Sequence record: OZ035728.1
Direction: 5' to 3' (one strand)
Length of the DNA stretch: 64,000 nt
From: Phapecoctavirus 536P1
Shown here piece by piece: positions 51,564 through 64,000 of the stretch (position 1 is the first letter of the stretch; every line of letters begins with the position of its first letter). The position numbers were made by a program, and so were the translations under genes. Below the pieces are notes generated by a model. It was not told the origin of the DNA and made no database searches. It saw nothing but the letters and a program-made list of their open reading frames with translations.

Positions 51564-51626
51564 TTGACAACAAACAACAACCTGATAAGATGTGTCACAT
51601 AGGGCGGCGGAATGGTCCAGCCGCTC
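51564..51626 (+). promoter_or_regulatory. promoter-hairpin cassette A
   Basis: TTGACA-N16-TGaTAAGAT then GGGCGGCGGAATGGTCCAGCCGCTC stem-loop starting about 3 nt after predicted +1. Confidence 0.6.
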
Positions 51627-51649
51627 ACAACAGAAGAGAGATTATAATC

Positions 51650-51922
51650 ATGGCATCATATAGCGCAACAATGATCGTAGCTGGCACCACTGGTAAACCT
51701 ATGAGCGGTGGCGGATCTTTCGCAAATATCAACATTGACGGGCGTTTATCCCTGGACGCAGCGATCACCGTGGCGCGGGAAACATTTAAGAAAGAATGTA
51801 AATTCAATAAACAAGATTATCTCGGTTTTGCTATTGAAAAAACCGCGCGCTTTGTTGATTATAAAAGCCCGAAAATGGTTGATACTACACTAAAAGCGCA
51901 AGATGTAGCGTTTTTGCTTTAA
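51650..51922 (+). CDS. hypothetical small protein
   Basis: 90 aa from ATG after purine-rich leader AGAAGAGAG. Confidence 0.6.
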   Translation: MASYSATMIVAGTTGKPMSGGGSFANINIDGRLSLDAAITVARETFKKECKFNKQDYLGFAIEKTARFVDYKSPKMVDTTLKAQDVAFLL

Positions 51923-51925
51923 GGC

Positions 51926-51980
51926 TTGACATTAACGAATAATTTGTTAATATGTTACATAAAGCGGGAATAGTTCCCGC
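51926..51980 (+). promoter_or_regulatory. promoter-hairpin cassette B
   Basis: TTGACA-N16-TAATAT then GCGGGAA-TAG-TTCCCGC. Confidence 0.6.
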
Positions 51981-51998
51981 TATTTGTAAGGTGGTAGA

Positions 51999-52256
51999 AT
52001 GTTTTACATCAAATTAAAAGGTCACGTGATCGCGTTCAAAGATAACGCTTTTTACAGATTAGCAAAATATGCGTTAATACATCCCCACTATGTTTATATA
52101 AGGGGGCGTGATGAAATAAATATCTTTGATCAAACAACATGCGAGAACATCGAGATCCGCAAGGTTGGCGTACGTGATTATCGTACATCTTTCTACCCTT
52201 GCAAGGATTCAGCAAGTCTTTTTAAAGTATGCCAATTGTTGAAAAAAGGTGGTTAA
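51999..52256 (+). CDS. hypothetical small protein
   Basis: 85 aa. Confidence 0.6.
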   Translation: MFYIKLKGHVIAFKDNAFYRLAKYALIHPHYVYIRGRDEINIFDQTTCENIEIRKVGVRDYRTSFYPCKDSASLFKVCQLLKKGG

Positions 52257-52257
52257 T

Positions 52258-52815
52258 ATGGGCCGCGAATATGTGATCCAGTCTTGGGTAAAACATGAAG
52301 CAGATGATCCGCGCATCATTCCCGATCATCTTATCGATGAATCCACGGGATATAGCGGTGAGCAAATAGGTAACAGATTAGCACGTAGTAACGGCAACGT
52401 AAAAGCGCGTTATGTGCGCCCTGGCTGGCTGGCAAATGGTAACGCTGATTTATCCAGTGCGGAAGATGCGAGCGACGGCGCGAAAGATAATCCTTTGTAC
52501 AAAATTGATCCGGCTTTTCGTGTCCTGGATGAATACCCCAGCAAGATAGCGGCGCTCGATCAGGCCCTGGAAAGTAAGCGCATCACCTGGACCGCTTACA
52601 ACATGGCAAAAAACGTACTTGATGGTAAATTGATTCAAGCTGAAAGGAAATTAGCCAAAATTGCAGCCATAGCCCAGGAGGAAGACGAGGAGACAACGGA
52701 AGAGGAAGAGTACGAAGAGATCCCGCCGTTGTTGTGTGTTGATGCTTTTCCTGATTATCAGCCGACAGAGGAAGAAAAAAGGATTGCACTAGAAAACTTT
52801 GAAAATAGTCTTTGA
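52258..52815 (+). CDS. hypothetical protein with acidic C-terminus
   Basis: 185 aa from ATG after SD AGGTGG. Confidence 0.6.
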   Translation: MGREYVIQSWVKHEADDPRIIPDHLIDESTGYSGEQIGNRLARSNGNVKARYVRPGWLANGNADLSSAEDASDGAKDNPLYKIDPAFRVLDEYPSKIAALDQALESKRITWTAYNMAKNVLDGKLIQAERKLAKIAAIAQEEDEETTEEEEYEEIPPLLCVDAFPDYQPTEEEKRIALENFENSL

Positions 52816-52869
52816 CATATCGCCGCCACTGGCATAATATTTACCACGTAGGGCGGCAATGGTGCCGCT
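52812..52869 (+). promoter_or_regulatory. promoter-hairpin cassette C
   Basis: TTGACA-N17-TAATAT then GGCGGCA-ATGG-TGCCGCT. Confidence 0.6.
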
Positions 52870-52897
52870 CATAGTGAAATTATGCAAGAGGTTTACA

Positions 52898-52993
52898 ATG
52901 ATTAATAAAGAAAATAGCTTGACGGTTGGAACGATTAACGCTATCATTTTCGCCGTTCCATTTTGGGTTGTAGTAGCGGCTATTATTTTCTAA
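52898..52993 (+). CDS. small hydrophobic peptide (31 aa)
   Basis: SD AGAGG; single predicted TM helix. Confidence 0.4.
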   Translation: MINKENSLTVGTINAIIFAVPFWVVVAAIIF

Positions 52994-53002
52994 AAAATAT
53001 TC

Positions 53003-53063
53003 TTGACAACGTTTTTTAATCTGATAAGATGTGTCACATAGGGCGGCGGAATACTTCCCCGCC
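53003..53063 (+). promoter_or_regulatory. promoter-hairpin cassette D
   Basis: TTGACA-N16-TGaTAAGAT then GGCGGCGGAATACTTCCCCGCC. Confidence 0.6.
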
Positions 53064-53084
53064 AAAACAAAAAAGGGTAACACA

Positions 53085-53447
53085 ATGAGCAAGCAAATCA
53101 ATACTATCATGTTTAATCTGGTATCTTTCCGCGATGATATGAAAAATTTACCACGTGAAACGGTTGATATTCATGTTTCAGCTTATCGCGCCCTTATTGA
53201 TATGTTACCGCTAAAACGTGATCAACATGCCGCTAATATGATGCTTAATGCTATGCTTAAAAAGATGATTCAAACGGATCTCACCCTGGCGTATGAGTAT
53301 CAAGGGCGCTTATATGCAACTTACAACAAGGCGGTACCTGGTCTGGGAAGTACCGAAGAGTTGCACGGCTTAAACCTGGATCAAAACACTTGGGATAGTA
53401 TGCGCCGCGTTATGATATGGGCCGAAAGCGGTAAAATTTACGAATAA
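53085..53447 (+). CDS. hypothetical protein
   Basis: 120 aa from ATG after leader AAAAAAGGG. Confidence 0.6.
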   Translation: MSKQINTIMFNLVSFRDDMKNLPRETVDIHVSAYRALIDMLPLKRDQHAANMMLNAMLKKMIQTDLTLAYEYQGRLYATYNKAVPGLGSTEELHGLNLDQNTWDSMRRVMIWAESGKIYE

Positions 53448-53452
53448 AAACG

Positions 53453-53512
53453 GTTGACACTGTTTAAACTTCTGGTATAGTTTACCACATAGGGCGGGAA
53501 GTGGTTTCCCGC
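53453..53512 (+). promoter_or_regulatory. promoter-hairpin cassette E
   Basis: TTGACA-N16-TGgTATAGT then GGCGGGAA-GTGG-TTTCCCGCC. Confidence 0.6.
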
Positions 53513-53535
53513 CAACAATGAAAAAGGTTATCATC

Positions 53536-53901
53536 ATGGCTATTAATATTAATGTTTCCGCTTATGCTACCCTGGCTAACACGGCTAAAATTGAATTATC
53601 CAGCATTGAGGCGGTGCATATTAGCGCCCGTCGCTGGTTTCAACGGTCCTACGGTAACACATATTTTTCTTTAATGGTTGACGTTGAGATCGGCGGTAAA
53701 CTGATCGAGGTGGTTAACGTTCCGTTTCAATATGGCTATGGTGATCATTTTGATACCGTCGCCCTGGAAGAGTTTAGCAAGGTTATCAACCTGGAAGGTA
53801 AAGAGTTTTCAAATTATGCCTACCTTTCCCGTTTTTGCCGTGACAATGGGATCACTGTATACAGTCATGCAAGCGATGTTAAACGTAAAAAAGATCTATA
53901 A
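53536..53901 (+). CDS. hypothetical protein
   Basis: 121 aa from ATG after AAAAAGG leader. Confidence 0.55.
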   Translation: MAININVSAYATLANTAKIELSSIEAVHISARRWFQRSYGNTYFSLMVDVEIGGKLIEVVNVPFQYGYGDHFDTVALEEFSKVINLEGKEFSNYAYLSRFCRDNGITVYSHASDVKRKKDL

Positions 53902-53907
53902 AAAGCA

Positions 53908-53969
53908 TTGACAGCACGAATAAAAAGAGTAAACTGTATTACATAGAGAGCGGGAATACTTCCCGCCTC
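53908..53969 (+). promoter_or_regulatory. promoter-hairpin cassette F
   Basis: TTGACA-N16-TAAACT then GCGGGAA-TAC-TTCCCGC. Confidence 0.55.
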
Positions 53970-53990
53970 ACTGAAAAAGAGATTAATATC

Positions 53991-54230
53991 ATGGCTAAAT
54001 CAAAAATGTTCTTAGGTCACAAAAATAAAACCCATTGGAATGTAAGCCTCTGGATTAATAACGATGAATCATTATATCGGTTGGCGAAAGAATTTATCGC
54101 CGCTAATACTAATCGTAATGATGCTGCGCGGGATATGATGCTTTTTCTGGAACAAACTGGACAAGATAAAACGCCAGACGGTTTCAAATATAGCACTACT
54201 GCGATCCGTGCCGCGATGGTTGGAATGTAA
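53991..54230 (+). CDS. hypothetical small protein
   Basis: 79 aa. Confidence 0.6.
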   Translation: MAKSKMFLGHKNKTHWNVSLWINNDESLYRLAKEFIAANTNRNDAARDMMLFLEQTGQDKTPDGFKYSTTAIRAAMVGM

Positions 54231-54239
54231 TAAAAACAG

Positions 54240-54299
54240 TTGACAACGTTTAAAATTAGTGTAAGATGTATCATATAGGGCGGGAAGTGGTTTCCCGCC
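54240..54299 (+). promoter_or_regulatory. promoter-hairpin cassette G
   Basis: TTGACA-N16-TGTAAGAT then GGCGGGAA-GTGG-TTTCCCGCC. Confidence 0.6.
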
Positions 54300-54320
54300 A
54301 AAACAGAGAGATTAAAGATT

Positions 54321-54548
54321 ATGGCTATCAATATTGTTCGCGTATCCGGCACCGTTGGCACTTCCCAGGTTATTGCAGTTGTAACAAACAAAAAGATTAA
54401 TGATGTATGTGAGATCTTGAATAAGTGGGCTGTTGCTAATTTTGGGGAATATGCAAGCGTCGAGTACATCGAATCCTACCAGGTGCCAACCATCAGCCTA
54501 ACCGATCTCAACGTTGATCGCCTGTTATGCCTGGATGAATTAATCTGA
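54321..54548 (+). CDS. hypothetical small protein
   Basis: 75 aa. Confidence 0.6.
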   Translation: MAINIVRVSGTVGTSQVIAVVTNKKINDVCEILNKWAVANFGEYASVEYIESYQVPTISLTDLNVDRLLCLDELI

Positions 54549-54557
54549 AAAAGATTG

Positions 54558-54620
54558 TTGACACGGGAAAGAAAAAGAGTAAACTGTATTACATCAAGGC
54601 GGCGGAATGGTCCACCGCCT
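54558..54620 (+). promoter_or_regulatory. promoter-hairpin cassette H
   Basis: TTGACA-N16-TAAACT then GGCGGCGGAATGGTCCACCGCC. Confidence 0.55.
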
Positions 54621-54643
54621 AACAAAGAGAAGAGGAAAACACC

Positions 54644-54811
54644 ATGATCACTTTCGCTACCCGTGAAGCCGCTCGCAATGTTGCCCGTAAAGTTAACGCC
54701 GCCAACCTGGGTGCTACGTTTAAAGCACCTGTAAAAGATGAATCAGGAAAATGGATCTTCCCTGGTCTGCGTCACGCTGATAAGCTAGGCACTTTAAGCC
54801 TTAAAAAATAA
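54644..54811 (+). CDS. hypothetical small protein (55 aa), N-terminus MITFA shared with next gene
   Basis: SD-like AGAGAAGAGG leader. Confidence 0.45.
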   Translation: MITFATREAARNVARKVNAANLGATFKAPVKDESGKWIFPGLRHADKLGTLSLKK

Positions 54812-54814
54812 TCG

Positions 54815-54854
54815 TTGACTTTTCGTTATAGCGCCCATCATAAGGCGCTATAGA
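54815..54854 (+). promoter_or_regulatory. atypical cassette I (TTGACT then ATAGCGCC-loop-GGCGCTAT palindrome)
   Basis: -35-like hexamer but hairpin sits where -10 is expected; different stem sequence. Confidence 0.35.
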
Positions 54855-54885
54855 GAAGAGAAACCACTACTAACAAGGAAACATC

Positions 54886-55107
54886 ATGATCACTTTCGCT
54901 ATTGTCGCCGTTGTTGCTGGTCAGGTTTACATAAACGATACATTCACCACAGAAGACAAGGCCGCAGGAGACATAACCGCCGTTTACAATGAGTGCAAGG
55001 CAGTAGAAAGGATGTTAGCGCCTTGTATGCTAATGAGTGAACGCCAGGACGGGATAACAGTATTTACTAACATTGAAACAGGGTACCAAATGGTAGTAAC
55101 AAAATAA
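54886..55107 (+). CDS. hypothetical small protein
   Basis: 73 aa. Confidence 0.55.
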   Translation: MITFAIVAVVAGQVYINDTFTTEDKAAGDITAVYNECKAVERMLAPCMLMSERQDGITVFTNIETGYQMVVTK

Positions 55108-55110
55108 AGC

Positions 55111-55167
55111 TTGACACGGATTTAATTTTCAGTAAACTGTTACACGTAGGGCGGGAATAGTTCCCGC
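55111..55167 (+). promoter_or_regulatory. promoter-hairpin cassette J
   Basis: TTGACA-N16-TAAACT then GCGGGAA-TAG-TTCCCGC. Confidence 0.6.
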
Positions 55168-55185
55168 TAAAAAGAGAGAAAGACC

Positions 55186-55539
55186 ATGAAAGCACAAAAT
55201 ACAATTAAAGAGTACATCCTTGCCGCTATCGATTTTAATGATTATGGTATTACAACCGAAAAAGAGAAGATCGCGGAATTGATGCGCCGTTTTAATTCCG
55301 AGTACTGGTACCCTGATAACCAATCACGTTTTAATTATAGTATTGTTAAAGCACTTGCATCATGGTTACAAGGTTTGCCATCAGATATCAATATCGCTTT
55401 CGAATATTGGGAAATTGATCGCTTGTTAACATCCTGGGGATACATTAAAGAGAATAGCAGCGATGATAAAATCCAACGAGAAAGGGAAAATTATTGGCTT
55501 TATATTGCAGGAGTGATCCTTGCTTGCTCTTATGAATGA
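55186..55539 (+). CDS. hypothetical protein
   Basis: 117 aa. Confidence 0.6.
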   Translation: MKAQNTIKEYILAAIDFNDYGITTEKEKIAELMRRFNSEYWYPDNQSRFNYSIVKALASWLQGLPSDINIAFEYWEIDRLLTSWGYIKENSSDDKIQRERENYWLYIAGVILACSYE

Positions 55540-55545
55540 TAAACC

Positions 55546-55600
55546 TTGACAATTTTACAAAACAGTTTAAATTAACAATATAGCGGCAATGGTGCCGCTC
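55546..55600 (+). promoter_or_regulatory. promoter-hairpin cassette K
   Basis: TTGACA-N16-TAAATT then GCGGCA-ATGG-TGCCGC. Confidence 0.5.
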
Positions 55601-55618
55601 ATATGAAGAGGAAACAAA

Positions 55619-55765
55619 ATGAAGACATCTAATCGCGCAGAAAAAATTCAATCTTCCAAGATCCGCAAGGCCTGGAACGAGGAAGTGATCCGCAAAGGCG
55701 ACAAGCGCAATAAAACAAAGCGCGGGAAGAGTGACAAATATAATTGGATGGATTTAGAGGATTAA
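55619..55765 (+). CDS. small basic protein (48 aa)
   Basis: Lys/Arg-rich; followed directly by terminator. Confidence 0.45.
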   Translation: MKTSNRAEKIQSSKIRKAWNEEVIRKGDKRNKTKRGKSDKYNWMDLED

Positions 55766-55772
55766 CATAACA

Positions 55773-55799
55773 AGGGCGCACCAAGCGCCCTTTCTTTTT
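55773..55799 (+). terminator. intrinsic terminator (GGGCGC-ACCAA-GCGCCC + T tract), copy 1
   Basis: identical hairpin and T tract recur at 60792. Confidence 0.75.
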
Positions 55800-55820
55800 A
55801 TATGTAGAGGATAAACAAAG

Positions 55821-56006
55821 ATGACTTTAAGCGAGCTTAAAACAGCCTACAACGCAACATTAAAAATAGCCGTGCGTTACCGTGATGCGTATGGTTTTAT
55901 CGCGCAGGGCGTGATCCTGGGCTTTTCTGACGATGGTTTGATCTATGTTGATGCACATCATAACAAGGTAAAACCTGAAAACGTCATTAGCATAAAATAT
56001 CTTTAA
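55821..56006 (+). CDS. hypothetical small protein
   Basis: 61 aa; SD GAGGA. Confidence 0.55.
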   Translation: MTLSELKTAYNATLKIAVRYRDAYGFIAQGVILGFSDDGLIYVDAHHNKVKPENVISIKYL

Positions 56007-56012
56007 AAGTGG

Positions 56013-56072
56013 TTGACACCATAACCGGACCTGTTAAACTGTATTACATCAGGCGGGGAATAGTTCCCCACC
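56013..56072 (+). promoter_or_regulatory. promoter-hairpin cassette L
   Basis: TTGACA-N16-TAAACT then GGCGGGGAA-TAG-TTCCCCACC. Confidence 0.55.
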
Positions 56073-56091
56073 ATACAAAAAGGTAAATATT

Positions 56092-56298
56092 ATGATCACC
56101 GCAAAACAAGAGAAAATCATTATCGACGTTGCAGCCGTTGCCGCTATTGCTATTATTGGATCTTATTATGATACCCGTTTCCCGTCGGCTATGCATGAGG
56201 TCGCCGCCGTTGCATCAGTTGGCGTACTGTTTTACGTTGGTAAACGCTATTTATCACCAATGATTAACAAGCTGACACCGTGGAAAAATAAAGGTTGA
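56092..56298 (+). CDS. small membrane protein
   Basis: 68 aa with hydrophobic segment. Confidence 0.55.
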   Translation: MITAKQEKIIIDVAAVAAIAIIGSYYDTRFPSAMHEVAAVASVGVLFYVGKRYLSPMINKLTPWKNKG

Positions 56299-56353
56299 TC
56301 CTGTTTTATATTGTGTTATAGTTATCGTGTAGGGCGGCAATGGTGCCGCGCCC
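56295..56353 (+). promoter_or_regulatory. promoter-hairpin cassette M
   Basis: TTGATC-N16-TATAGT then GGCGGCA-ATGG-TGCCGCG. Confidence 0.5.
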
Positions 56354-56369
56354 CTTTGAGGATGCAATC

Positions 56370-56654
56370 ATGAGTAAAGCTAACACCGTGCTAATGTTTT
56401 CCCTGATTAATGATCCCGCTTACTTGTCCAACATGACGCAGGAGGGTAACACATTAACGGCAACATTCACCAATAAGCTTGACCGAGTGATCATCATCTC
56501 ACTGAAAACAGTTAGTAAAGGCTTTTACTCGTTAGCTTATCATTGGATCACCGATACCGATGAGACAAGCCAGGACTATAGCGCCCCTTTCCCTGAATCA
56601 ATGGCACGGGAGATCATCGCCGCCGTTGTAAATGATGGTTTGTTTACTGAATAA
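56370..56654 (+). CDS. hypothetical protein
   Basis: 94 aa from ATG after SD GAGGA. Confidence 0.55.
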   Translation: MSKANTVLMFSLINDPAYLSNMTQEGNTLTATFTNKLDRVIIISLKTVSKGFYSLAYHWITDTDETSQDYSAPFPESMAREIIAAVVNDGLFTE

Positions 56655-56672
56655 AATAATTTAGAAAAAGGC

Positions 56673-56729
56673 TTGCAATCATTTTGAGATAGTGTATATT
56701 TAATTCATAGGGCGGCGGGAATAGTTCCC
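56673..56729 (+). promoter_or_regulatory. promoter-hairpin cassette N
   Basis: TTGCAA-N16-TATATT then GGCGGCGGGAA-TAG-TTCCC. Confidence 0.5.
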
Positions 56730-56752
56730 AAAGCAAACGAGAGGATTACACG

Positions 56753-56872
56753 ATGAGCAAGTACACAGTAGAATACACGGTAGAAAATCCGGCAGTATCC
56801 GAAGGTAAAAAGATGACATTTGCCATCAATATAATCGCTTTCGTTGTCACTATCTTATCAATCATCTTATAA
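56753..56872 (+). CDS. small hydrophobic peptide (39 aa)
   Basis: SD GAGAGGA; C-terminal TM helix. Confidence 0.45.
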   Translation: MSKYTVEYTVENPAVSEGKKMTFAINIIAFVVTILSIIL

Positions 56873-56882
56873 GGTGCACACC

Positions 56883-57044
56883 ATGAAAACAACAGATATT
56901 ATCAAAGAGATCGCCCTTGCCGCTGGCGTTGAGATCGAGGAAGTGATCGCGCTCAATCTTACAGAAAACGATCTGCGCAACTATGAAGCGGAAAGCGTGA
57001 AAGCAAGCGGCGCGGTCCTGGTATATGATCCGGCTAACAAGTAA
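56883..57044 (+). CDS. hypothetical small protein (53 aa)
   Basis: ATG 10 nt after stop of preceding peptide gene. Confidence 0.45.
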   Translation: MKTTDIIKEIALAAGVEIEEVIALNLTENDLRNYEAESVKASGAVLVYDPANK

Positions 57045-57053
57045 GGGGATAAC

Positions 57054-57203
57054 ATGAATCCGAAAGATATGCAAGCATGGAAAGGGTACGACGATCTAAG
57101 CGCCTTGCGCAATAAGTCAAGCCGTAACTTTAGACGGTTGGAAGCAAAGAAAAAGAAAAATAGTTTGACAAGTCCGCCTAGTCTGATAATATATATCTTG
57201 TAG
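57054..57203 (+). CDS. hypothetical small basic protein (49 aa)
   Basis: SD AAGGGGA; 3' end overlaps cassette O promoter. Confidence 0.35.
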   Translation: MNPKDMQAWKGYDDLSALRNKSSRNFRRLEAKKKKNSLTSPPSLIIYIL

Positions 57204-57222
57204 GGCGGCAATGGTGCCGCTC
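57165..57222 (+). promoter_or_regulatory. promoter-hairpin cassette O
   Basis: TTGACA-N16-TGaTAATAT then GGCGGCA-ATGG-TGCCGCT. Confidence 0.6.
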
Positions 57223-57241
57223 ACAAGAAGAGAGAAAAATC

Positions 57242-57526
57242 ATGAAAATCACAAAAAGCCTAACTAATTATGCAGCACGTCGCGGATTATGTTTAACCGT
57301 TGAAAACTTAGGGAAAGAAGACTTTTTGTGTTTTTGGGAGCTTGAAAATGATTGCGAGTGGATGTTTTCTTATTCTATCTGCGAAGATCAAAACGGTTGT
57401 TTGTTAACCTGGCGCGGTAATATCTGTTTACCGGAAGAAATTAAAGAAGAGTTACCAGGTACGATCATGACAGAGAGACAGCTTAAGGAAGTGATCAATT
57501 TTGTAGGGCAAAACATTAAAAAATAA
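57242..57526 (+). CDS. hypothetical Cys-containing protein
   Basis: 94 aa. Confidence 0.6.
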   Translation: MKITKSLTNYAARRGLCLTVENLGKEDFLCFWELENDCEWMFSYSICEDQNGCLLTWRGNICLPEEIKEELPGTIMTERQLKEVINFVGQNIKK

Positions 57527-57527
57527 T

Positions 57528-57590
57528 TTGACAGTAGGCAAACAACGTAGTAAAGTTTATTACATAGAGCGGCGGAATGGTCCACCGCTC
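57528..57590 (+). promoter_or_regulatory. promoter-hairpin cassette P
   Basis: TTGACA-N17-TAAAGT then GCGGCGGAATGGTCCACCGC. Confidence 0.55.
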
Positions 57591-57611
57591 ACAACAGAAG
57601 AGAAACAAATC

Positions 57612-57782
57612 ATGATCCCGACTATGTTTTATGTATCGCGCAAAGGTCACAATATTTTTTGGTCTGAAGATTTAAATGAAGCTATGACGTTTGCCCGTGA
57701 TCGTGTTGCTATCGGTGGCGTTAACATCACCGTAACCGATGAAAATGGCATTGAATACTATAACGGCGACGATGAAGAATAA
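57612..57782 (+). CDS. hypothetical small protein (56 aa)
   Basis: ATG after leader AGAAGAGAAACAAATC. Confidence 0.5.
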   Translation: MIPTMFYVSRKGHNIFWSEDLNEAMTFARDRVAIGGVNITVTDENGIEYYNGDDEE

Positions 57783-57788
57783 TTAATG

Positions 57789-57813
57789 AGGCGGGGGGAG
57801 TATTCCCCGCCGT
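57789..57813 (+). promoter_or_regulatory. leader stem-loop Q without recognisable promoter
   Basis: GGCGGGGGGAG-TAT-TCCCCGCC directly upstream of SD of gene 57831. Confidence 0.4.
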
Positions 57814-57830
57814 CAATAAAGAGGTAAATC

Positions 57831-58100
57831 ATGAAAATATCATTGGACGTTGCAATCAAGGCCATCGAATCCGGTTACATCCTGGTAAAAGATGATAAGG
57901 CTAAAATAGTGCATCATGTTAACAAGGAAACAGGCGAAAGCATGATCACATATAAAGCCGCCTACTTTCTCCAATCAGTAGCAGATCCGCGCGTACAACG
58001 CCAGGTTACGGCGGCTATTGCTAAAAAATTATGTGCTTTACAGGGTGCAAGTTTTAACGAGATTGCCCCGTGTTTTGAGTGGTCAAGCTTGAAAAAATAA
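57831..58100 (+). CDS. hypothetical protein
   Basis: 89 aa; SD AGAGG. Confidence 0.6.
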   Translation: MKISLDVAIKAIESGYILVKDDKAKIVHHVNKETGESMITYKAAYFLQSVADPRVQRQVTAAIAKKLCALQGASFNEIAPCFEWSSLKK

Positions 58101-58101
58101 T

Positions 58102-58163
58102 TTGACAACAATTATAAATCGGGTAGAATGTATTTCGTAGGGCGGGGCAATAAGGCAACGCCC
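58102..58163 (+). promoter_or_regulatory. promoter-hairpin cassette R
   Basis: TTGACA-N16-TAGAAT then GGGCG...CGCCC stem with long loop. Confidence 0.5.
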
Positions 58164-58181
58164 ATTAATGAGGGTAGAATC

Positions 58182-58286
58182 ATGTTAGAGAAAATTTTCA
58201 CGGTCGTAGTAGTGGGCCTGGCGTTATCGGTTGGAGTAGTTGCAACTATGGCTAATATGATCCTATCTTCCCACGGTATCGGCTAA
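58182..58286 (+). CDS. small hydrophobic peptide (34 aa)
   Basis: SD GAGGG; single TM helix. Confidence 0.4.
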   Translation: MLEKIFTVVVVGLALSVGVVATMANMILSSHGIG

Positions 58287-58300
58287 AAGAGAGACACAAC

Positions 58301-58687
58301 ATGAAAACAGAAATCATTATTGAAATCATCAACGGCTATAAAGAAGCCTTTATTTTTGCTGAATCAGCAAGGGATCATGAAGGTAATTTTATTGATAACT
58401 TAGACGATTATGATTTTTCTCCTAGCGCGGACGAACGGATCGCCCAGGATGTAACAGCCTTTATTAATGCTAATCTTGCCGCTATCTCTGAGGCAATGAG
58501 CGACGGCGCAACAGCCATCCAGATCGGGAGTGATTTACATTTTACCCGTAACGGTCACGGCATAGGCTTTTGGAATCGCCCTGAAATATACACTACTAAC
58601 ACGGCGAACCGCCTAACAAATGCCGCTAAGTTTATGCCTATTGTGTCGGCTTACATTGGTGAAGATAATTTGATTTATATTGAATAA
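58301..58687 (+). CDS. hypothetical acidic protein
   Basis: 128 aa; leader AAAGAGAGACACAAC. Confidence 0.6.
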   Translation: MKTEIIIEIINGYKEAFIFAESARDHEGNFIDNLDDYDFSPSADERIAQDVTAFINANLAAISEAMSDGATAIQIGSDLHFTRNGHGIGFWNRPEIYTTNTANRLTNAAKFMPIVSAYIGEDNLIYIE

Positions 58688-58693
58688 AAAGTA

Positions 58694-58751
58694 TTGACAC
58701 AGATCGCCAGTGTGCTAATATTTACCACGTAGGGCGGCAATGGTGCCGCTC
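58694..58751 (+). promoter_or_regulatory. promoter-hairpin cassette S
   Basis: TTGACA-N16-TGcTAATAT then GGCGGCA-ATGG-TGCCGCT. Confidence 0.6.
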
Positions 58752-58770
58752 ACTGTAAAAGGTAAACATT

Positions 58771-58962
58771 ATGAAAACTATCACCTATCTGGAATCTAAT
58801 AACATGTTTTTCGCCCCCGTTGATGAAATCATCGAAGCATTAAACAACGAGGAAGGGATCAAAGGTTTATCTTATAGCCAACTTTTAGGAATGGTTGCAG
58901 CAAATGAGGAGCTTGCTTACTATATTGAAAATTTTGATGAAGCTGTAATCTTTACAAAATAA
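58771..58962 (+). CDS. hypothetical small acidic protein
   Basis: 63 aa. Confidence 0.55.
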   Translation: MKTITYLESNNMFFAPVDEIIEALNNEEGIKGLSYSQLLGMVAANEELAYYIENFDEAVIFTK

Positions 58963-58964
58963 TC

Positions 58965-59021
58965 CTTGATCTAATCTCTCAGATAACTTATATTTAATGC
59001 GTAGGGCGGCAATGGTGCCGC
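58965..59021 (+). promoter_or_regulatory. promoter-hairpin cassette T
   Basis: TTGATC-N16-TATATT then GGCGGCA-ATGG-TGCCGCC. Confidence 0.5.
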
Positions 59022-59040
59022 CGATAATGAGGAAAACAAA

Positions 59041-59340
59041 ATGGAAACTATCGCTATTGTTACCGTAGAAAAACTGGTTGTTGGTGATGTATTCGCGTTA
59101 ATGGTGCCTAACAGCAGCAAGCTGGGCGCTTATGAAGTAATGGATCATAAAAATGAATCATTTGGCGACGGTTGCACAATGGCGGTAAAATCTTTAAAGG
59201 ATGGAATCATCCGCCAGGCTAACTGGCACAAAGGGAATCAAGTCGGTTTAATATCAGCTAATTTCTTGCCAGAAGAGCAAACATTAGATCAACTATCAGG
59301 CGGTAAGACGTTAGCCGAACTACTGGAAACAGCGATCTAA
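59041..59340 (+). CDS. hypothetical protein
   Basis: 99 aa. Confidence 0.6.
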   Translation: METIAIVTVEKLVVGDVFALMVPNSSKLGAYEVMDHKNESFGDGCTMAVKSLKDGIIRQANWHKGNQVGLISANFLPEEQTLDQLSGGKTLAELLETAI

Positions 59341-59347
59341 TCGACAA

Positions 59348-59364
59348 GGGGCGGCAACGCCCCC
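59348..59364 (+). promoter_or_regulatory. leader stem-loop U (GGGGCG-GCAA-CGCCCC, GNRA-type loop)
   Basis: hairpin 30 nt upstream of ATG 59394; no promoter hexamers seen. Confidence 0.4.
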
Positions 59365-59393
59365 ATTAAACGCAATAGGAAGAGGATAGACAC

Positions 59394-59678
59394 ATGAAAA
59401 AGACGATCGCAGTAGTTGCCCTGGTTGTTGGTATTAACGCGCCTGTAATGGCGAAAGAGTTGCCAGAATCCATCACGTTAACCGATATTAACGCAGTGAA
59501 CCGGATCGGTGTTAATTATCGCCTATGCCTTGCCGCTAAAACTTTCCAGGACGGCACAACAGAGTACTACGGATTCGAGGGTGTTCGGTGCGGTGAGCTT
59601 GCACGCGACCTTAAGGAAGATCCAGACCTTGAGGCCATACCGATGACCGTAAACGGTAAAGCCCAGGTAAACCGCTAA
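59394..59678 (+). CDS. secreted/periplasmic protein
   Basis: signal peptide MKKTIAVVALVVGINAPVMA; SD AGGAAGAGGA. Confidence 0.6.
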   Translation: MKKTIAVVALVVGINAPVMAKELPESITLTDINAVNRIGVNYRLCLAAKTFQDGTTEYYGFEGVRCGELARDLKEDPDLEAIPMTVNGKAQVNR

Positions 59679-59680
59679 CC

Positions 59681-59815
59681 ATGAGAAAGGTAATCATCAC
59701 AATGGGGATCGTAGTAGCAACGCTGGCGCTTATTCCCTTCCTGGTTGAATATGTGCTGATTAATGTTGTCCTAGTAGTCAGTGACCTATTGGAAACGGTT
59801 GGCACCTGGTTTTAA
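59681..59815 (+). CDS. small membrane peptide (44 aa)
   Basis: ATG 2 nt after upstream stop; two hydrophobic stretches. Confidence 0.4.
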   Translation: MRKVIITMGIVVATLALIPFLVEYVLINVVLVVSDLLETVGTWF

Positions 59816-59823
59816 AAATAAAT

Positions 59824-59853
59824 AAACAGGACTTGTTTTTGTCCTGTTTTTTG
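59824..59853 (+). terminator. intrinsic terminator
   Basis: ACAGGAC-loop-GTCCTGT hairpin followed by TTTTTTG. Confidence 0.65.
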
Positions 59854-59991
59854 TTATACTTATTAAACGGGCGGCACTTGGGAGCAGGTGAAGATAATCA
59901 CCGGAAGATCCCGCTATATATCGATAGCTAATACCTATCAAACAACAAAACATCAAAGAGATAAACTATTAAATCTTTACAATCCTACATA

Positions 59992-60020
59992 TTGACCGAT
60001 AAATCACAACAGTTTAATAT
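59992..60020 (+). promoter_or_regulatory. sigma70-like promoter (TTGACC-N17-TAATAT), no leader hairpin
   Basis: about 50 nt upstream of ATG 60069. Confidence 0.45.
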
Positions 60021-60068
60021 TGTTTTCAGAGGTTAAAATATTCCCCAAACGAAAACAGGAAAAAGAAA

Positions 60069-60305
60069 ATGAAAGAAGTTATGATCCTCAAAAAATCACC
60101 TATTTTACGTGGTGGCTTTATCGCTTACTCTGATGATCTGTTAATTGCAACAGTTGCAAAAATACTAAAATCAGAAGATGACAGTAAAAACGGCGTTTAT
60201 CGTATCTGTTTCACCCGTGGAAAATTACAAGGTAAGATCGCTTATGCCTTTGACTTACAAGATGTAAACGATAAAATATGCGCTGTTATTGATTATGCAA
60301 AATAG
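60069..60305 (+). CDS. hypothetical small protein
   Basis: 78 aa; A-rich SD. Confidence 0.55.
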   Translation: MKEVMILKKSPILRGGFIAYSDDLLIATVAKILKSEDDSKNGVYRICFTRGKLQGKIAYAFDLQDVNDKICAVIDYAK

Positions 60306-60317
60306 TTAATTTTCTTA

Positions 60318-60358
60318 TTGACACCGGATCACGCTTGCATTATTATTTATCACGTAGG
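60318..60358 (+). promoter_or_regulatory. cassette V: promoter with degenerate leader (CACGTAGGGC retained, stem lost)
   Basis: TTGACA-N17-TATTAT then CACGTAGGGCAAATCATTTT. Confidence 0.45.
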
Positions 60359-60392
60359 GCAAATCATTTTAAACGGTAAACGAGGAATCACC

Positions 60393-60776
60393 ATGAGCAA
60401 TATCATCAACCTGGCAGCGACTGTAAACGGTAAAGACTTTAACGGCGCTGTAGACCGTGATCCTATGTGGTGCTTATCAGTGTTTAAAGGCGACCTGGTT
60501 GAAGTTAGAACAACCGAAGGGTATAGCGATGATTATAAATGTGAGATCCATTTGCATAACTGGTACACGGGTAAAACTTATGCGCTGAATCACGCGTTTA
60601 TCGGAAAAATCGAATATTGTGAGATGATTGACGAAGAAACGGGGCAAGATTTTAGCGAAAACGTTTATATTCGTTCAGAAACATTAGCCGAACGTTTGAT
60701 CGAGAAAATGAAAGCAAAAAATAAAATTAATTTATCTCATTGGATTGATATAACAAACGATCCAGCTTATCAATAA
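60393..60776 (+). CDS. hypothetical protein
   Basis: 127 aa from ATG after SD GAGGAA. Confidence 0.6.
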   Translation: MSNIINLAATVNGKDFNGAVDRDPMWCLSVFKGDLVEVRTTEGYSDDYKCEIHLHNWYTGKTYALNHAFIGKIEYCEMIDEETGQDFSENVYIRSETLAERLIEKMKAKNKINLSHWIDITNDPAYQ

Positions 60777-60791
60777 ATAACATTTCACACC

Positions 60792-60818
60792 AGGGCGCAC
60801 CAAGCGCCCTTTCTTTTT
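60792..60818 (+). terminator. intrinsic terminator (GGGCGC-ACCAA-GCGCCC + T tract), copy 2; closes cassette array
   Basis: identical to terminator at 55773. Confidence 0.75.
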
Positions 60819-60959
60819 GCCCGAACAATGTTGATAGCTTTCGCCTATGAAAAACCGACACAGAACAAAATTGAATAAATAGCGGTATCAAGCTAATCAA
60901 CCATTAAACGAATAACCATACCTCCCAGGGTAACAGGCTGTTAGAGAGCCATTTATAGC

Positions 60960-61320
60960 GGTTAAAATCGATCAACAACCAACAACAAACCATCAAAAAC
61001 ACCTTTTTACCTCCTTTCTAGTGCAATGATAACCATTATCATCTACCCATGATTATCTATGCAATATAAGCGCATAACTATAATGTTGATAATAGTTCGC
61101 AACAACTAACCAACAAACAACATAAAACAATAAGCAAACTAATCATAATCAAAGGAATAATAGCAAGATGATTGATAACGACAAACAATCAAACCATGAT
61201 AAATACTAAGCAAAATAACGATAACACGACAAAACAACCAACTAACGAACAATAACAAACGAAACCATTAAAATAATAACTATTAGCAAAATAGTGCATG
61301 AATGAAATCATTACAAAACG
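60960..61320. repeat. A/C-rich, G- and T-poor low-complexity tract without ORFs
   Basis: runs such as CAACAACCAACAACAAACCATCAAAAACACC and AACAACATAAAACAATAAGCAAACTAATCATAATC; strong strand asymmetry. Confidence 0.6.
61026..61043. promoter_or_regulatory. Fur-box-like site
   Basis: TGATAACCATTATCATC resembles 3' two-thirds of Fur consensus. Confidence 0.3.
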
Positions 61321-61882
61321 AATCATTCACAGAGTCATCATTAGCACGCTACGCCGGACACGTAGCGAGCTAATAATAAGCCAACTACACCCCAACAATC
61401 ATAACCATCGGTGACGGTTATTTCTTGTTACTGCGTAGCTTGCAATAATTGCAAGCGTAATGACGCTTACACTTATTGCGCTGGCTTATTATTAGCATTA
61501 TATGTAATTACCAAGATCATAACATTAGCGCAATAACAATAATCATTGTGGTAATTACAAGAGTTATCACTATCGTTCAGTGTGATCATCATTAGCAGGA
61601 TGAATAATTGCACGTAGCAACATGAGCGAATAGCGACAGGTTGCATAGTGTGCACATAGTGTATAAACATACAAGAAAATAAAGGCTAATCTTTTGGGGG
61701 CGAATACTATCGCGTAGCGATATGTTGAGCACTAAGAGAAGAGATAAACCTTAATCATGGGGGCGTAAATATCCGCAGGATTGCCAACGGCGATCCGGTA
61801 GGATGTTGAGCACCTTCTCTTAAACGTAAATAAAATCAGAAAATTCTTGATTTATTTTAGTTTTTATGTTAATAAACGTTTA

Positions 61883-61900
61883 AATAATAATCATTCTCAT
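61883..61900. promoter_or_regulatory. Fur-box-like site
   Basis: AATAATAATCATTCTCAT; 12/14 to TGATAATCATTATC core. Confidence 0.4.
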
Positions 61901-62061
61901 ATAAATAATAGTCCGTCTGTCATGAGCGGGATCAGTTGACAATGTTCCGTCATATGATGAAGTTGCCAAACCATTGATAAATAAGTGTTTGTGTGATTTA
62001 TAATCAGGTGGCCCACCTTGTCGCTATGTTGGCATGAGCCTTGCATAAGTCATTGAATACG

Positions 62062-62085
62062 AATGATAATTATTCTCATTCTCAT
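62062..62085. promoter_or_regulatory. Fur-box-like site
   Basis: AATGATAATTATTCTCATTCTCAT; 12/14 to Fur core with duplicated TTCTCAT. Confidence 0.4.
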
Positions 62086-62421
62086 GATATTTGGGAATTG
62101 TCGCTGCGTGGACCTGACGGCCCGAAAATTCGCGTTAAGCACTTCTTACGTATGCGCCATGATTTTTGCCATATCATATTGATTCTATTAGATATTCTTG
62201 CCATGATTGCCATGAAACAGGGTGTCCCGAAATAATCTCTCCCCGTAGATATTTTGGGTTACTTTTTATACAAGAGCGGGGTGTCAAAAATAATCGGTAT
62301 ATATGGGATAATTGATAGGAATCCCCTATGATAATTCGATTGTAATTCCCTAAGATTGATCGTATGATGTTGGTGATTGATGATTGCCATGAAAGATGGC
62401 TAACGATGAGAGGAGATTGTC

Positions 62422-62766
62422 ATGCAAGAGAGTAAAAATGTTCCGTTGAGTAGTTTACGTCTAATGAAGTTTTACAAAGCTTGGCTTGCTGGTGAGGTAG
62501 AAGGTCACACAACGAGTGGCTTGTGCATATGTTTGATTAAGTATGTAGAGGGAACATATCCTGATGAACTGTTACCTCGTCTACAACAGGAGATGAAATC
62601 ACAGTTTATTGGTGCAGGACTGGATTACAATTTCCCGTTTAATGAAGGTGGTTATGAGGAATACACCTTCGAACATAAAAAACATATTTGCCATAAAAAC
62701 AAACATCGTATACAATGGGTGCTAGATAGAATTCAAGATTACGAAGGAGAGAAAAATGACAAATAG
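62422..62766 (+). CDS. hypothetical protein, paralogue of 62756..63124
   Basis: 114 aa; SD GAGAGGAG; shares SSLRLMKFYKAWLA...TTSGLCICL pattern with next gene. Confidence 0.6.
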   Translation: MQESKNVPLSSLRLMKFYKAWLAGEVEGHTTSGLCICLIKYVEGTYPDELLPRLQQEMKSQFIGAGLDYNFPFNEGGYEEYTFEHKKHICHKNKHRIQWVLDRIQDYEGEKNDK

Positions 62767-63124
62767 TATTCCGTTGAGCAGTGCAACATTGCTTCGCTTC
62801 TATAAAGCATGGATTGCCAACTATCCTGCAATGAATCGCACAACGAGTGGCTTATGTGGTTGTCTGGTAGATTATGTAGATGATTTTGTTGGTGAGACAA
62901 CTAGAGAAGAAGATAGAAGATGGCGGGATAGTTTGTTGGACCGTTTGAAATATGAAATGAGGAAACAATTTACATGTGCAGGGCTGGACTATAATCTTCC
63001 GTTCAATGCAGATTGCATGGATTACCTTTCAGAGTGTATAAACTTGGCGTGTCATACCAACACGTTACGTCTTCAATGGGTGAAAGACAGAATTGAAGAT
63101 GCAAATAATGCTTGCATTGAATAA
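62756..63124 (+). CDS. hypothetical protein, paralogue of 62422..62766
   Basis: 122 aa; SD AGGAGAG; SSATLLRFYKAWIA...TTSGLCGCL. Confidence 0.6.
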   Translation: MTNSIPLSSATLLRFYKAWIANYPAMNRTTSGLCGCLVDYVDDFVGETTREEDRRWRDSLLDRLKYEMRKQFTCAGLDYNLPFNADCMDYLSECINLACHTNTLRLQWVKDRIEDANNACIE

Positions 63125-63173
63125 AAATGTCTGTATAGTGGATGACATAACAGATAGCCAATGAGGAGATGAA

Positions 63174-63383
63174 ATGAAGAATTTGAAAACTGTCACAATG
63201 TTCTTGACTGATCCTACACGTGTGCAAGCACTGGCTAAAGCCAGCCGTGTAGCTGTAGAATTCCAAAACTTTAAGCCGTCCGTTGTGACAGGCAGTGAAA
63301 CGTGTGTTATCGATTTCATTAACGAATACTTCCGAGGGAATCCGGTTAGTCGTTACTTCATTAAGGGTCTGAAGGATGCATAA
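63174..63383 (+). CDS. hypothetical small protein
   Basis: 69 aa; SD GAGGAG. Confidence 0.55.
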   Translation: MKNLKTVTMFLTDPTRVQALAKASRVAVEFQNFKPSVVTGSETCVIDFINEYFRGNPVSRYFIKGLKDA

Positions 63384-63384
63384 T

Positions 63385-63606
63385 ATGAAACGCATGAAAA
63401 TTCGTATTGAGAATGATGGTGGTTATAAAGGATTGGCACATGCAAAATTTCCACTTGTGTTGGAAGCTACGGTGGAATACAGTGGGCTTGCTCATGTGCG
63501 ATTCTCGAAGATGATGGAAGTGCAGGAATGGTTTTGGGACGAGATAGATGCACGAGAAGGAGAAGATTATGTTTTCTTTCCTCACGAATATAACATTGTC
63601 TATTAA
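63385..63606 (+). CDS. hypothetical small protein
   Basis: 73 aa from ATG after SD AAGGA. Confidence 0.5.
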   Translation: MKRMKIRIENDGGYKGLAHAKFPLVLEATVEYSGLAHVRFSKMMEVQEWFWDEIDAREGEDYVFFPHEYNIVY

Positions 63607-63618
63607 AGGTTGTGTGCA

Positions 63619-63858
63619 ATGATCACACCACAACAGAATGAAGCCGCAATGGATCTTCTTGATAGTTTGTATTTCGATAATTGGTACTCTGAATGTGAAT
63701 GGATGAATATGCAAACTCTGAAAGAGAAGACAAAAGCGTTGATTACAGTAGATCAATTTCTTGCAGAGACGGAAAGAATGAATTATGATATGGCATCTCG
63801 CGCACGACGCGTTTCCATTTTCAATAAAATGTTAGCATTATGGGGAGGTAGAAAATGA
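63619..63858 (+). CDS. hypothetical small protein
   Basis: 79 aa from internal ATG. Confidence 0.5.
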   Translation: MITPQQNEAAMDLLDSLYFDNWYSECEWMNMQTLKEKTKALITVDQFLAETERMNYDMASRARRVSIFNKMLALWGGRK

Positions 63859-64000
63859 GACAATTCACTATACTGGCAGCTTATGTGCAATGTGTTCACG
63901 ATTATGTTAGTGCTCATACAGGTTTGCTGGAAGTTACCAGTAAAATTGAAGGTAATATGGGTACTGTCTGTGTGCAACATACTTTATCCAATGTGCCGTT
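63855..64000 (+). CDS. hypothetical protein, 3' end beyond window
   Basis: ATGA overlap with upstream stop, SD GGGGAGG; ORF open to window end. Confidence 0.45.
   Translation, partial: MRQFTILAAYVQCVHDYVSAHTGLLEVTSKIEGNMGTVCVQHTLSNVP

Follow-up and report, generated by a model that had tools for sequence, protein, structure and literature searches.

Direct terminal repeats (DTRs) have been described for several phages of the phAPEC8-like and phi92-like group. The genome of Schickermooser carries a 328-bp terminal repeat (Korf 2019, PMC6563267), the genomes of the subfamily are stated to "terminate with direct terminal repeats" (PMC12695924), and the DTR of BME3 was determined as 342 bp by PhageTerm (PMC12210895). 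Two annotated copies, DTR-L at 1-343 and DTR-R at 148270-148612, are identical to each other in the phi92 RefSeq record NC_023693. For T7, packaging of a plasmid needs an origin, the pac site and the terminal repeat (PMC13236587). Here we describe the terminal region of Phapecoctavirus 536P1, which lies within a 64,000-nt stretch of sequence record OZ035728.1 (hereafter the window; coordinates are those of this stretch unless another record is named). Judged from sequence similarity, the window belongs to Phapecoctavirus (phAPEC8-like; subfamily Stephanstirmvirinae, ~150-kb myoviruses). A terminal repeat at this site is already known for the phage group. As far as our literature search went, the cut motif at its boundaries and a folded element to its left seem to have no earlier description, and the G depletion of the adjoining tract seems undescribed as a feature shared across the subfamily; the literature on phi92/phAPEC8-like ends yielded no description of any of the three.

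A first-pass annotation, made from the letters alone, had pointed to 1.6 kb poor in open reading frames (ORFs) at this place, and this is borne out: when ORFs of 70 aa or more on both strands are considered, the window has no longer ORF-free stretch than 60777-62421 (1645 nt), the runner-up having 800 nt. The region is arranged around the terminal repeat and its two boundaries, with the following parts:

61809-62136, no strand assigned: direct terminal repeat of 328 bp, located by the record ends of relatives and the published 328-bp repeat.
61759-61813, plus strand: left cut-site module at the repeat boundary, from the record ends of relatives, the phi92 DTR annotation, motif conservation and hairpin covariation.
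62134-62142, plus strand: right cut-site motif GTTA^AGCAC, cut after 62136 or 62137, with a conserved GAAAATTCGC ahead of it.
61696-61732, plus strand: extra upstream copy of the left module, from repeat and motif comparison.
61503-61690, no strand assigned: variable spacer, from strain-specific indels.

The position of the repeat follows the ends of related records. In Mt1B1_P17, the first and last 328 bp of the record are identical and map to 61809-62136. At least 11 related records from several laboratories start exactly at the DTR boundary base 61809 (328-bp query), related records start or end exactly at 61809 and 62136, and several of them (Schickermooser, BI-EHEC, WPEC1/2/4/6, three SA_NWU phages and Ro121lw) have the second copy at the other record end; a more sensitive blastn search revealed many related assemblies that start or stop inside the region. 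The annotated DTR boundaries of phi92 align with the boundaries in the window, which is 96-99 % identical to these mapped DTRs. Between genera the interior of the repeat is only ~70 % identical; the boundary blocks are conserved. Taken together, the identical record ends, the shared start base and the published repeats identify the region as a collapsed genome-end junction, that is, as the two physical ends of a linear, non-permuted genome that appear here as continuous sequence. The DTR is present once in the window, as expected of an assembly that was presumably collapsed and permuted. Both properties of the DTR type, the same sequence at the two ends and fixed termini, should hold for this isolate by homology, in which case 60816-61808, to the left of the repeat, would be the non-coding right end of the genome and 62137-62421, to its right, the leader of the first left-end gene. 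The first-pass annotation had listed a packaging signal among its candidate functions, and the 328-bp repeat at 61809-62136 supports that proposal; no part had been singled out, however, and it is the repeat rather than the tract on which the support falls.

The BME3 record (PP239276) annotates DTR-L at 146957-147298 on the minus strand, the repeat contains N's, and the ends of the record overlap oddly by several hundred bases, which makes the annotated DTR not directly usable; the BME3 repeat maps to the same place as the repeats of phi92 and muut.

Both boundaries of the repeat carry the motif GTTR^AGCAC (the caret marks the cut) in the same orientation; the R is G at the left boundary (GTTG^AGCAC) and A at the right one (GTTA^AGCAC). 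The left boundary reads ..TTTGTTG^AGCCTAC.. in phi92 and ..GGATGTTG^AGCACCTT.. in the window, and the right boundary ..ATCGCGTTA^AGCACCTC.. and ..TTCGCGTT^AAGCACTT.., respectively. In a scan of all oriented loci, every lineage examined had the pair GTTG^AGC and GTTA^AGCAC in this orientation on the downstream side of the folded element. The two motifs have a spacing of 329 in Phapecoctavirus (reported DTR 328), 330-331 in two phiWec-like contigs from metagenomes, 342-344 in Justusliebigvirus and Klebsiella phages (phi92, 343 by motif and 343 as annotated), and 401-412 in two metagenome phages, and the published DTR lengths agree with these values. No copy of the motif was found on the minus strand of this region of the window. 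The boundary motif is probably the site of the packaging nuclease (terminase).

The left site is preceded by a composite module consisting of a G-run (GGGGGCGAA), a 5-8-bp GC hairpin and ATGTTG. In the left module of the window, the order is GGGGGCGTAA, the hairpin GGATTGCC-AAC-GGCGATCC (61778-61796), and ATGTTG^AGCAC, with the cut between 61808 and 61809. The extra copy upstream consists of GGGGGCGAA, the hairpin TATCGC-GTA-GCGATA (61708-61722), already noticed in the first pass as the palindrome TATCGCGTAGCGATA, and ATGTTGAGCAC (61722-61732); it occurs in some strains and is absent from phAPEC8, AV125 and phiWec179/190. The module is present once in some strains, twice in the window (61696-61732 and 61759-61813) and three times in KP13-26. 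In the hairpin ahead of the left site, pairing is retained under a varying sequence, as seen from the variants TATCGC/GCGATA, ATCGC/GCGAT with an inverted loop, CCGCC/GGCGG, GGATTGCC/GGCGATCC, GCCCAC/GTGGGC and AACCCT/AGGGTT. The spacer at 61503-61690 contains an imperfect inverted repeat (61503-61520 / 61542-61559) and TTAGC words at 61525 and 61592. Within it, a 21-nt insertion, GTTATCACTATCGTTCAGTGT at 61563-61583, is shared among the aligned phages with phiWec190 only, close relatives in Phapecoctavirus lacking it; indels of this sort make the spacer from the folded element to the cut site a patchwork.

The second conserved component of the region lies to the left of this spacer and comprises six helices:

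61334-61501, no strand assigned: covarying multi-helix element of ~168 nt, from RNAalifold and pair counts.
61347-61353 / 61361-61367: H1 hairpin.
61369-61383 / 61482-61496: H2, a 15-bp closing stem around ~100 nt.
61385-61388 / 61435-61438: H2b, a 4-bp stem.
61401-61409 / 61413-61421: H3, a 9-bp hairpin with a 3-nt loop.
61438-61456: H4, an invariant perfect palindrome.
61456-61462 / 61474-61480: H5, with lineage-specific inserted hairpins in its loop.

Five lineages with no more than 70-78 % identity in this element contributed 21 distinct sequences to the alignment, and RNAalifold returned 47 pairs in these six helices. Paired cells make up 98.2 % of the total, compared with 89.4 % in column shuffles (0 of 500 reach the observed value) and 21-48 % when the partners are slid; double-sided changes affect 16 pairs, versus 1-7 with slid partners. 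For instance, the arms of H2 are always complementary (..AAGCCA/TGGCTT.., ..AACGCA/TGCGTT.., ..ACCGCA/TGCGGT.. and ..AACACA/TGTGTT..), H3 is represented by at least six different stems, and arall has one A-T to T-A swap in the element. An alternative pairing of the H4 centre with the 3' arm of H5 shows compensatory changes too, e.g., in ECO340P1. Pairing in 61334-61501 is conserved by compensatory substitutions beyond the controls, as in an RNA or single-stranded DNA element, and since a long-range stem encloses internal branches, no simple cruciform would arise from duplex DNA, which leaves RNA or exposed single-stranded DNA. The minus-strand model has 53 pairs (98.4 % paired) and is more stable in all 21 sequences (mean -78.4 vs. 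-60.8 kcal/mol, a difference of ~17 kcal/mol); it adds six pairs that depend on G-U and more one-sided wobble changes. The core helices are strand-symmetric, and wobble pairs give no decision between the strands; a preference for the minus strand comes from the extensions only.

A covariance model of the element has a single match in the window, at 61334-61501 (190.7 bits), and none in rV5 or in six further IMG/VR loci; likewise, no more distant members were recovered by searching IMG/VR with a gapped H2-stem pattern or by covariance-model searches. The pattern used for a metagenome scan, GCTTGCAANNATTGCAAGC, was too loose, with 4 real loci among the 120 returned. The first-pass annotation had described clustered palindromes and short repeats here. 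The palindromes exist: TTAGCACGCTACG/CGTAGCGAGCTAA is found at 61341-61373 with one mismatch and GCTTGCAATAATTGCAAGC at 61438-61456 without any. They do not form a loose cluster, however, being mostly helices of one covarying structure or hairpins of the cut-site modules. The proposed recurrence of CGTAGC was confirmed, with 5 of its 23 matches in the window falling within 61348-61718 (370 bp), whereas two of the three suggested TCATCATTAGCA repeats are exact (61335 and 61586) and the third, TTATTATTAGCA at 61485, has two mismatches.

Between the last upstream gene and the element, and again to the right of the repeat, we distinguish the following features:

60792-60818, plus strand: intrinsic terminator closing an upstream array of small early-type genes, from a terminator scan.
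60831-60900, no strand assigned: Block A, ~70 nt, conserved in the subfamily, from a 10-lineage alignment.
60960-61320, plus strand: A-rich, G/T-depleted tract, unstructured on the plus strand, from composition and folding energies.
61018-61100, no strand assigned: Block B, conserved in the subfamily, from its repeat family and the lineage alignment.
62137-62421, plus strand: left-end leader before the first gene (ATG at 62422), from repeats and a promoter-like site.

The terminator (stem at 60792-60810, followed by a T run) is kept in every lineage aligned, and an ARNold terminator is annotated at the homologous site of phAPEC8. Behind it, the G-poor zone extends over ~60850-61330. The tract at 60960-61320 contains 48.8 % A, 20.5 % C, 9.4 % G and 21.3 % T; its A+C content (69.3 %, window mean 51.1, sd 3.8) is the maximum of same-length windows on either strand, and its G content is the minimum of the whole window. 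It had been called A/C-rich in the first pass, which is correct for A+C and for the scarcity of G and T, but C as such is not enriched, its 20.5 % being the window average. As for the suggested resemblance to ARN motifs, the commonest triplets are AAC, CAA, AAA and ACA, but the longest in-phase A-R-N run has 5 triplets versus 4.25 in shuffles, no more than composition gives. A role as a long unstructured RNA sponge, another candidate function of the first pass, found no specific support, as the ARN signal is one of composition and the A/C richness occurs in two genera only. As plus-strand RNA, the tract is the least structured segment sampled (-0.084 vs. -0.222 kcal/mol/nt, sd 0.035), and its GC skew ranges from -0.24 to -0.39. 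Its sequence is conserved at 90-100 % only between Phapecoctavirus and the phiWec genus, to which A/C richness and T depletion are likewise confined, whereas G depletion of the plus strand (3-10 % G over ~400 nt) and an A+T content of 70-80 % are found in all genera; conservation of the tract in relatives thus holds for G depletion and not for sequence beyond two genera. In composition the tract agrees with a Rho-loading (rut) site, being untranslated, unstructured and richer in C than in G over 361 nt (at least ~80 nt are needed). The complementary transcript would be C-poor and hence a poor Rho substrate. In rV5, the same sign of skew follows the last gene on both convergent sides of the 2.6-kb terminal gap, which supports a transcription-insulating role and is no proof of it.

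This gap of rV5 (NC_011041, 104014-106617) is non-coding, separates convergent gene arrays and lies at about the record position of the mapped 459-bp terminal repeat of LL12. On each side a G-poor tract follows the last gene, and the gap also holds GAGAAT/ATTCTC palindromes and ~10 iteron-like copies of ACTGTTTAC/ACTGTTCAC (7480-7640 in the numbering of the rV5 piece L148, where the gap is 6015-8618).

Two short blocks within the right end are conserved throughout the subfamily. Block A follows the pattern TGATAGCTTT..CC.AT.GAAA.C...CAC.G...AAAAGTGAATA.ATCGCGGTAT. Block B comprises a Fur-box-like palindrome, AATGATAACCATTATCAT (61025-61042), a TATGC..GCATA palindrome (61058-61076) and a degenerate Fur-like box (~61081-61097), whose positions are kept in Justusliebigvirus, Klebsiella phages and L098. 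Further Fur-box-like palindromes, at 61883-61900 and 62062-62079, occupy the best-conserved parts of the DTR interior. Sites were scored against the 19-bp Fur box consensus GATAATGATAATCATTATC, and some matches were counted by eye. The site at 62065 on the minus strand matches 16/19; two sites in the window have at most three mismatches, versus 0.04 expected. By eye, 61025 matches 15/19, and 61883 and 62062 (plus strand) each 14/19. The phi92 DTR has a Fur-like site of 17/19. The repeat also contains a minus-strand promoter-like site (62097 to 62069) that overlaps a Fur-like box and lies at +260 from the left cut, the same offset in three genera, and the only IHF consensus (61979, minus strand). 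A second Fur-box-like cluster is located at 50440-50560 (GTGAGAATGAGAAGAGTTCTCAT, GCAAATGATAATGATTCGCATT and GTAAATGATAATCATTCTCAT; the site at 50539 has 3 mismatches), within the ORF-free stretch 50013-50601 and just upstream of the start of the early-type gene array.

The region is real and non-random. Comparison with relatives shows where the DTR lies, a motif conserved at both of its boundaries, a covarying structure and a conserved arrangement of parts. We read it as a genome-end junction with terminase sites and a right-end zone of cis-acting control, an interpretation that we consider moderately probable as a whole. The terminase would recognize both motif sites in a replicative concatemer that has one DTR copy per junction; the cut at the left site would produce the left end and the cut at the right site the right end, and the 328 bp between them would be copied, so that each packaged genome carries two, as in T7-type phages. 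The non-coding kilobase of the right end would serve as the control zone of end formation. First, the terminator and the tract resembling a Rho-loading site may stop rightward transcription from the strong upstream promoters before the junction. Second, the same skew would leave little C on the opposite strand, which would thereby permit leftward transcription to proceed from the promoter-like site in the DTR. Third, the 168-nt element, which would fold only when single-stranded (as RNA or exposed DNA), could mark, together with the TTAGC and Fur-box-like sites, where end processing, packaging initiation or priming is organized; the element itself may serve any of these three functions.

Several observations weigh against this interpretation. 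The termini of the present isolate are placed by 96-99 % identity to phages with mapped ends. Justusliebigvirus has no hairpin ahead of the left site, and a third copy of the motif (61722-61732) falls outside the DTR at a position that is not a reported end. The distance between the element and the cut site varies from 240 to 520 nt, and no promoter-terminator pair conserved in all genera brackets the element. As for the tract, a role of Rho is suggested by composition, and the near-invariance of its sequence between two genera exceeds what a compositional role needs.

The alternative that survives best, although we regard it as unlikely, holds that the element and the skewed tract form one gene for a trans-acting non-coding RNA. 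Its transcription could run leftward, starting at the DTR site, or rightward, starting at a weak promoter directly ahead of the element; the product might take part in packaging or assembly, regulate early genes, or act as a decoy that binds an RNA-binding protein of the host, as in the sponge proposal of the first pass. The multi-branch fold with its 15-bp closing stem around ~100 nt, and the compensatory and one-sided G-C/G-U/A-U changes, are typical of structured RNAs, and an asymmetry such as that of the tract pertains to one strand by itself rather than to a DNA duplex. The minus-strand promoter-like site at +260 in three genera would suit leftward synthesis; for the opposite direction, Justusliebigvirus has CATACA-17-TATAAT on the plus strand directly upstream of the element. 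However, promoter-like sites near the element are genus-specific or weak: no sigma-70-like promoter common to all genera was found upstream of it on either strand, no intrinsic terminator flanks it on either side, and no promoter-terminator pair is common to all genera. A scan of 56000-64000 against Rfam 15 (both strands, E<=1) gave no match to any family, including phi29 pRNA, Y RNA-like, tRNA-like and phage motifs, and ARAGORN found no tRNA or tmRNA. On the plus strand, moreover, the element sits behind the terminator and the rut-like tract; the tract sequence is unconserved beyond two genera, and its ARN runs do not exceed the expectation from composition. Nor did 60816-61808 match any of 5,426 E. 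coli genomes by blastn, and thus there is no sign of host-derived sequence or of an obvious target for antisense base pairing. A transcriptome study of Stephanstirmvirinae was not found in the literature. In its furthest extension, which we consider quite doubtful, the element would represent a phage non-coding RNA of a new class. It would be synthesized at the genome end, with transcription most plausibly starting at the promoter-like site of the DTR and running leftward, and it would be needed in cis or in trans for end processing, packaging or replication priming, while the adjoining skew would act as a one-way Rho valve that terminates rightward and spares leftward transcription. In a terminase-packaging myovirus, such an RNA would thus correspond in function to the pRNA of phi29 or to a primer RNA of the ColE1 type.

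In Justusliebigvirus (muut 1905-1966, arall 1438-1471, and phi92), 2-4 tandem copies of a 21-nt unit, GTAATCATTTCATACA.., lie directly upstream of the element, with a strain-variable copy number and a perfect TATAAT between the repeats and the element; they are annotated as repeat_region in muut and arall.

It is quite unlikely, in our assessment, that the region is or contains a replication origin, the remaining candidate function of the first-pass annotation. The tract would then be the unwinding element, TTAGC and the Fur-like palindromes would be protein sites, and the folded element would arise in a primer transcript or on the strand that is displaced, with initiation primed by transcription or by an R-loop. 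This mode of initiation is known from the origins of T4 and ColE1, and the origins of T7 are transcription-primed. Several features fit: the tract has 70-80 % A+T in all genera and a strong strand skew, TTAGC is directional and 10-fold enriched (5 plus-strand occurrences in 350 bp vs. 0.5 expected), the 21-nt tandem repeats of Justusliebigvirus adjoin the element, and the promoter-like site in the DTR points into the tract. In rV5, a member of the sister subfamily, the terminal gap holds ~10 iteron-like ACTGTTTAC copies and the replication genes are annotated as T7 type. However, the search for origin and host-factor motifs found no DnaA boxes (nor any Chi sites), no initiator gene was identified adjoining the region, and the proximity to the DTR in all genera is equally well explained by packaging.

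That nothing beyond the DTR and promoters is functional, the remainder being spacer conserved by recent descent with palindromes due to chance, appears very improbable when the relatives are considered. By megablast, 60700-62500 matched 124 phage records, nearly all from Escherichia phages of the genera Phapecoctavirus and Justusliebigvirus, with 96 % identity to phAPEC8. Identity within the genus says little, because most Phapecoctavirus records are >94 % identical overall, and to this extent recent descent would suffice. Across genera, however, the non-coding block is better conserved than the neighbouring genes: 60802-61500 retains 90-100 % identity even in phiWec179/190, which form a separate genus; there, blastn finds no match to the upstream flanking gene, and identity is no higher than ~70-83 % in the DTR and the genes downstream. 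Identity along the gap is uneven, with 61337-61497 as the part still retained by the most distant relatives. A gap of 1.5-2.0 kb with the parts in the same order is found in all genera, and the covariation, with 98 % of cells paired across five lineages that are 70-78 % identical (21-48 % with slid partners), contradicts a spacer without function. In phAPEC8 the counterpart is the unannotated gap 5513-7021 between gp017 and gp018, with same-strand arrays of small hypothetical genes on both flanks and an annotated terminator ahead; the same empty gap recurs in other records, the region being left without annotation in most related GenBank entries.

Missed small proteins, e.g., hydrophobic peptides encoded on the G/T-rich minus strand, are hardly credible: there are open frames of 32-65 codons on both strands and a few records annotate hypothetical proteins here, but most annotate nothing, ten small ORFs from the region had no match among PHROG families, the frames overlap in all phases and cross the covarying helices with no consistent frame, and the hydrophobicity follows from the T-rich codons of the skewed strand.

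The leader at 62137-62421 contains the direct repeats reported in the first-pass annotation, namely ATGATTGCCATGAAA at 62203-62217 and 62380-62394 and GGGTGTC..AAATAATC at 62220-62237 and 62279-62295, together with a 24-nt tandem repeat (62307-62356) and a plus-strand promoter-like sequence, TTGTAA-17-TATGAT (62340-62368), which occupies the same relative place in muut and ECGD1 and recurs in Justusliebigvirus. A T4-type late promoter, TATAAATA, was considered and discarded, its 7 matches in the window being no enrichment over the 5.8 expected. Within the upstream gene array, a perfect 9-bp hairpin at 59824-59849 with flanking T runs on both strands looks like a bidirectional terminator. The sequence CAC(G/A)TAGGGC occurs seven times on the plus strand at 51596-60360 (1.4 expected on both strands together); at 60318-60360 and in phAPEC8, a strong sigma-70-like promoter (TTGACA-17-TAnnAT) precedes it and a GC hairpin begins with it. 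Its counterparts in the phAPEC8 record are the 'PHIRE promoter' features, and it has the look of a conserved element in the 5' leaders of early genes. Several 'Campylobacter phage' records (B15, A150 and C3; MG065650, MG065639 and MG065656) and one Pseudomonas and one Acinetobacter phage record carry this Escherichia-phage terminal region, with 92-97 % identity, or 78 % for the Justusliebigvirus-type Campylobacter records A150 and C3; the host labels of these records may be unreliable or reflect contamination.

Phages of the phAPEC8-/phi92-like group are widely isolated and are used in therapy cocktails and model collections; their records start arbitrarily and leave this kilobase blank. The rule of GTTR^AGCAC twice, 329-344 bp apart in most lineages, orients the genomes of the subfamily and predicts the DTR without read analysis. 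The junction also offers a concrete substrate for studying the cutting and duplication of short terminal repeats in large myoviruses, a step that to our knowledge is understood in T7-like podoviruses only. For end processing, the folded element provides a testable candidate component, cis-acting or RNA, of a new kind, and the conserved Fur-box-like sites hint that host iron status, or a look-alike phage protein, is linked to events at the genome end.

Among the known systems, rut regions resemble the tract in being untranslated, richer in C than in G, unstructured far beyond 80 nt and located downstream of the last gene of an operon; the tract differs in being several times longer than is typical and nearly invariant in sequence between two genera. 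The rV5-like phages (Vequintavirinae; LL12 DTR of 459 bp) share a large non-coding gap with a short DTR, a G-poor tract and GAGAAT/ATTCTC palindromes. However, the flanking genes of rV5 converge, its gap has no match to the covariance model, and its repeat words differ (ACTGTTTAC). The pRNA of phi29 (RF00044) is a ~170-nt structured RNA encoded beside the genome end, in which pairing rather than sequence is conserved. It is like the present element in size (~170 nt), in its position at the genome end and in its conserved pairing; the element has no Rfam match, however, and its helix layout differs. Moreover, phi29 packages protein-primed unit genomes, whereas the phage described here would package from concatemers by a terminase.

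With the ends of the phi92/phAPEC8-like phages (NC_023693, Schickermooser), the locus shares homologous sequence, the position of the DTR, a similar repeat length (328; 343 in phi92) and the neighbouring genes. There is no difference in kind: it is the same feature, present once here through the collapsed assembly. The concatemer junction of T7 and T3 consists of the terminal repeat and pac sequences, and its maturation is coupled to transcription. It is alike in that the DTR is short and non-permuted and that concatemers hold a single copy of it at each junction. In T7, arrays of short repeats and an inverted repeat reportedly lie to the left of the right DTR. Sequences in cis beside the repeat are needed for packaging in T7 (PMC13236587), a further likeness. 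On the other hand, the present phage is a ~150-kb myovirus with no sequence similarity to T7 or T3, the same cut motif stands at both boundaries of its repeat, and its non-coding zone is much larger and contains the 168-nt covarying multi-helix structure. We know of no counterpart of this structure in T7. By analogy, we regard T7 as the nearest mechanistic precedent for the way in which these ends would be formed.

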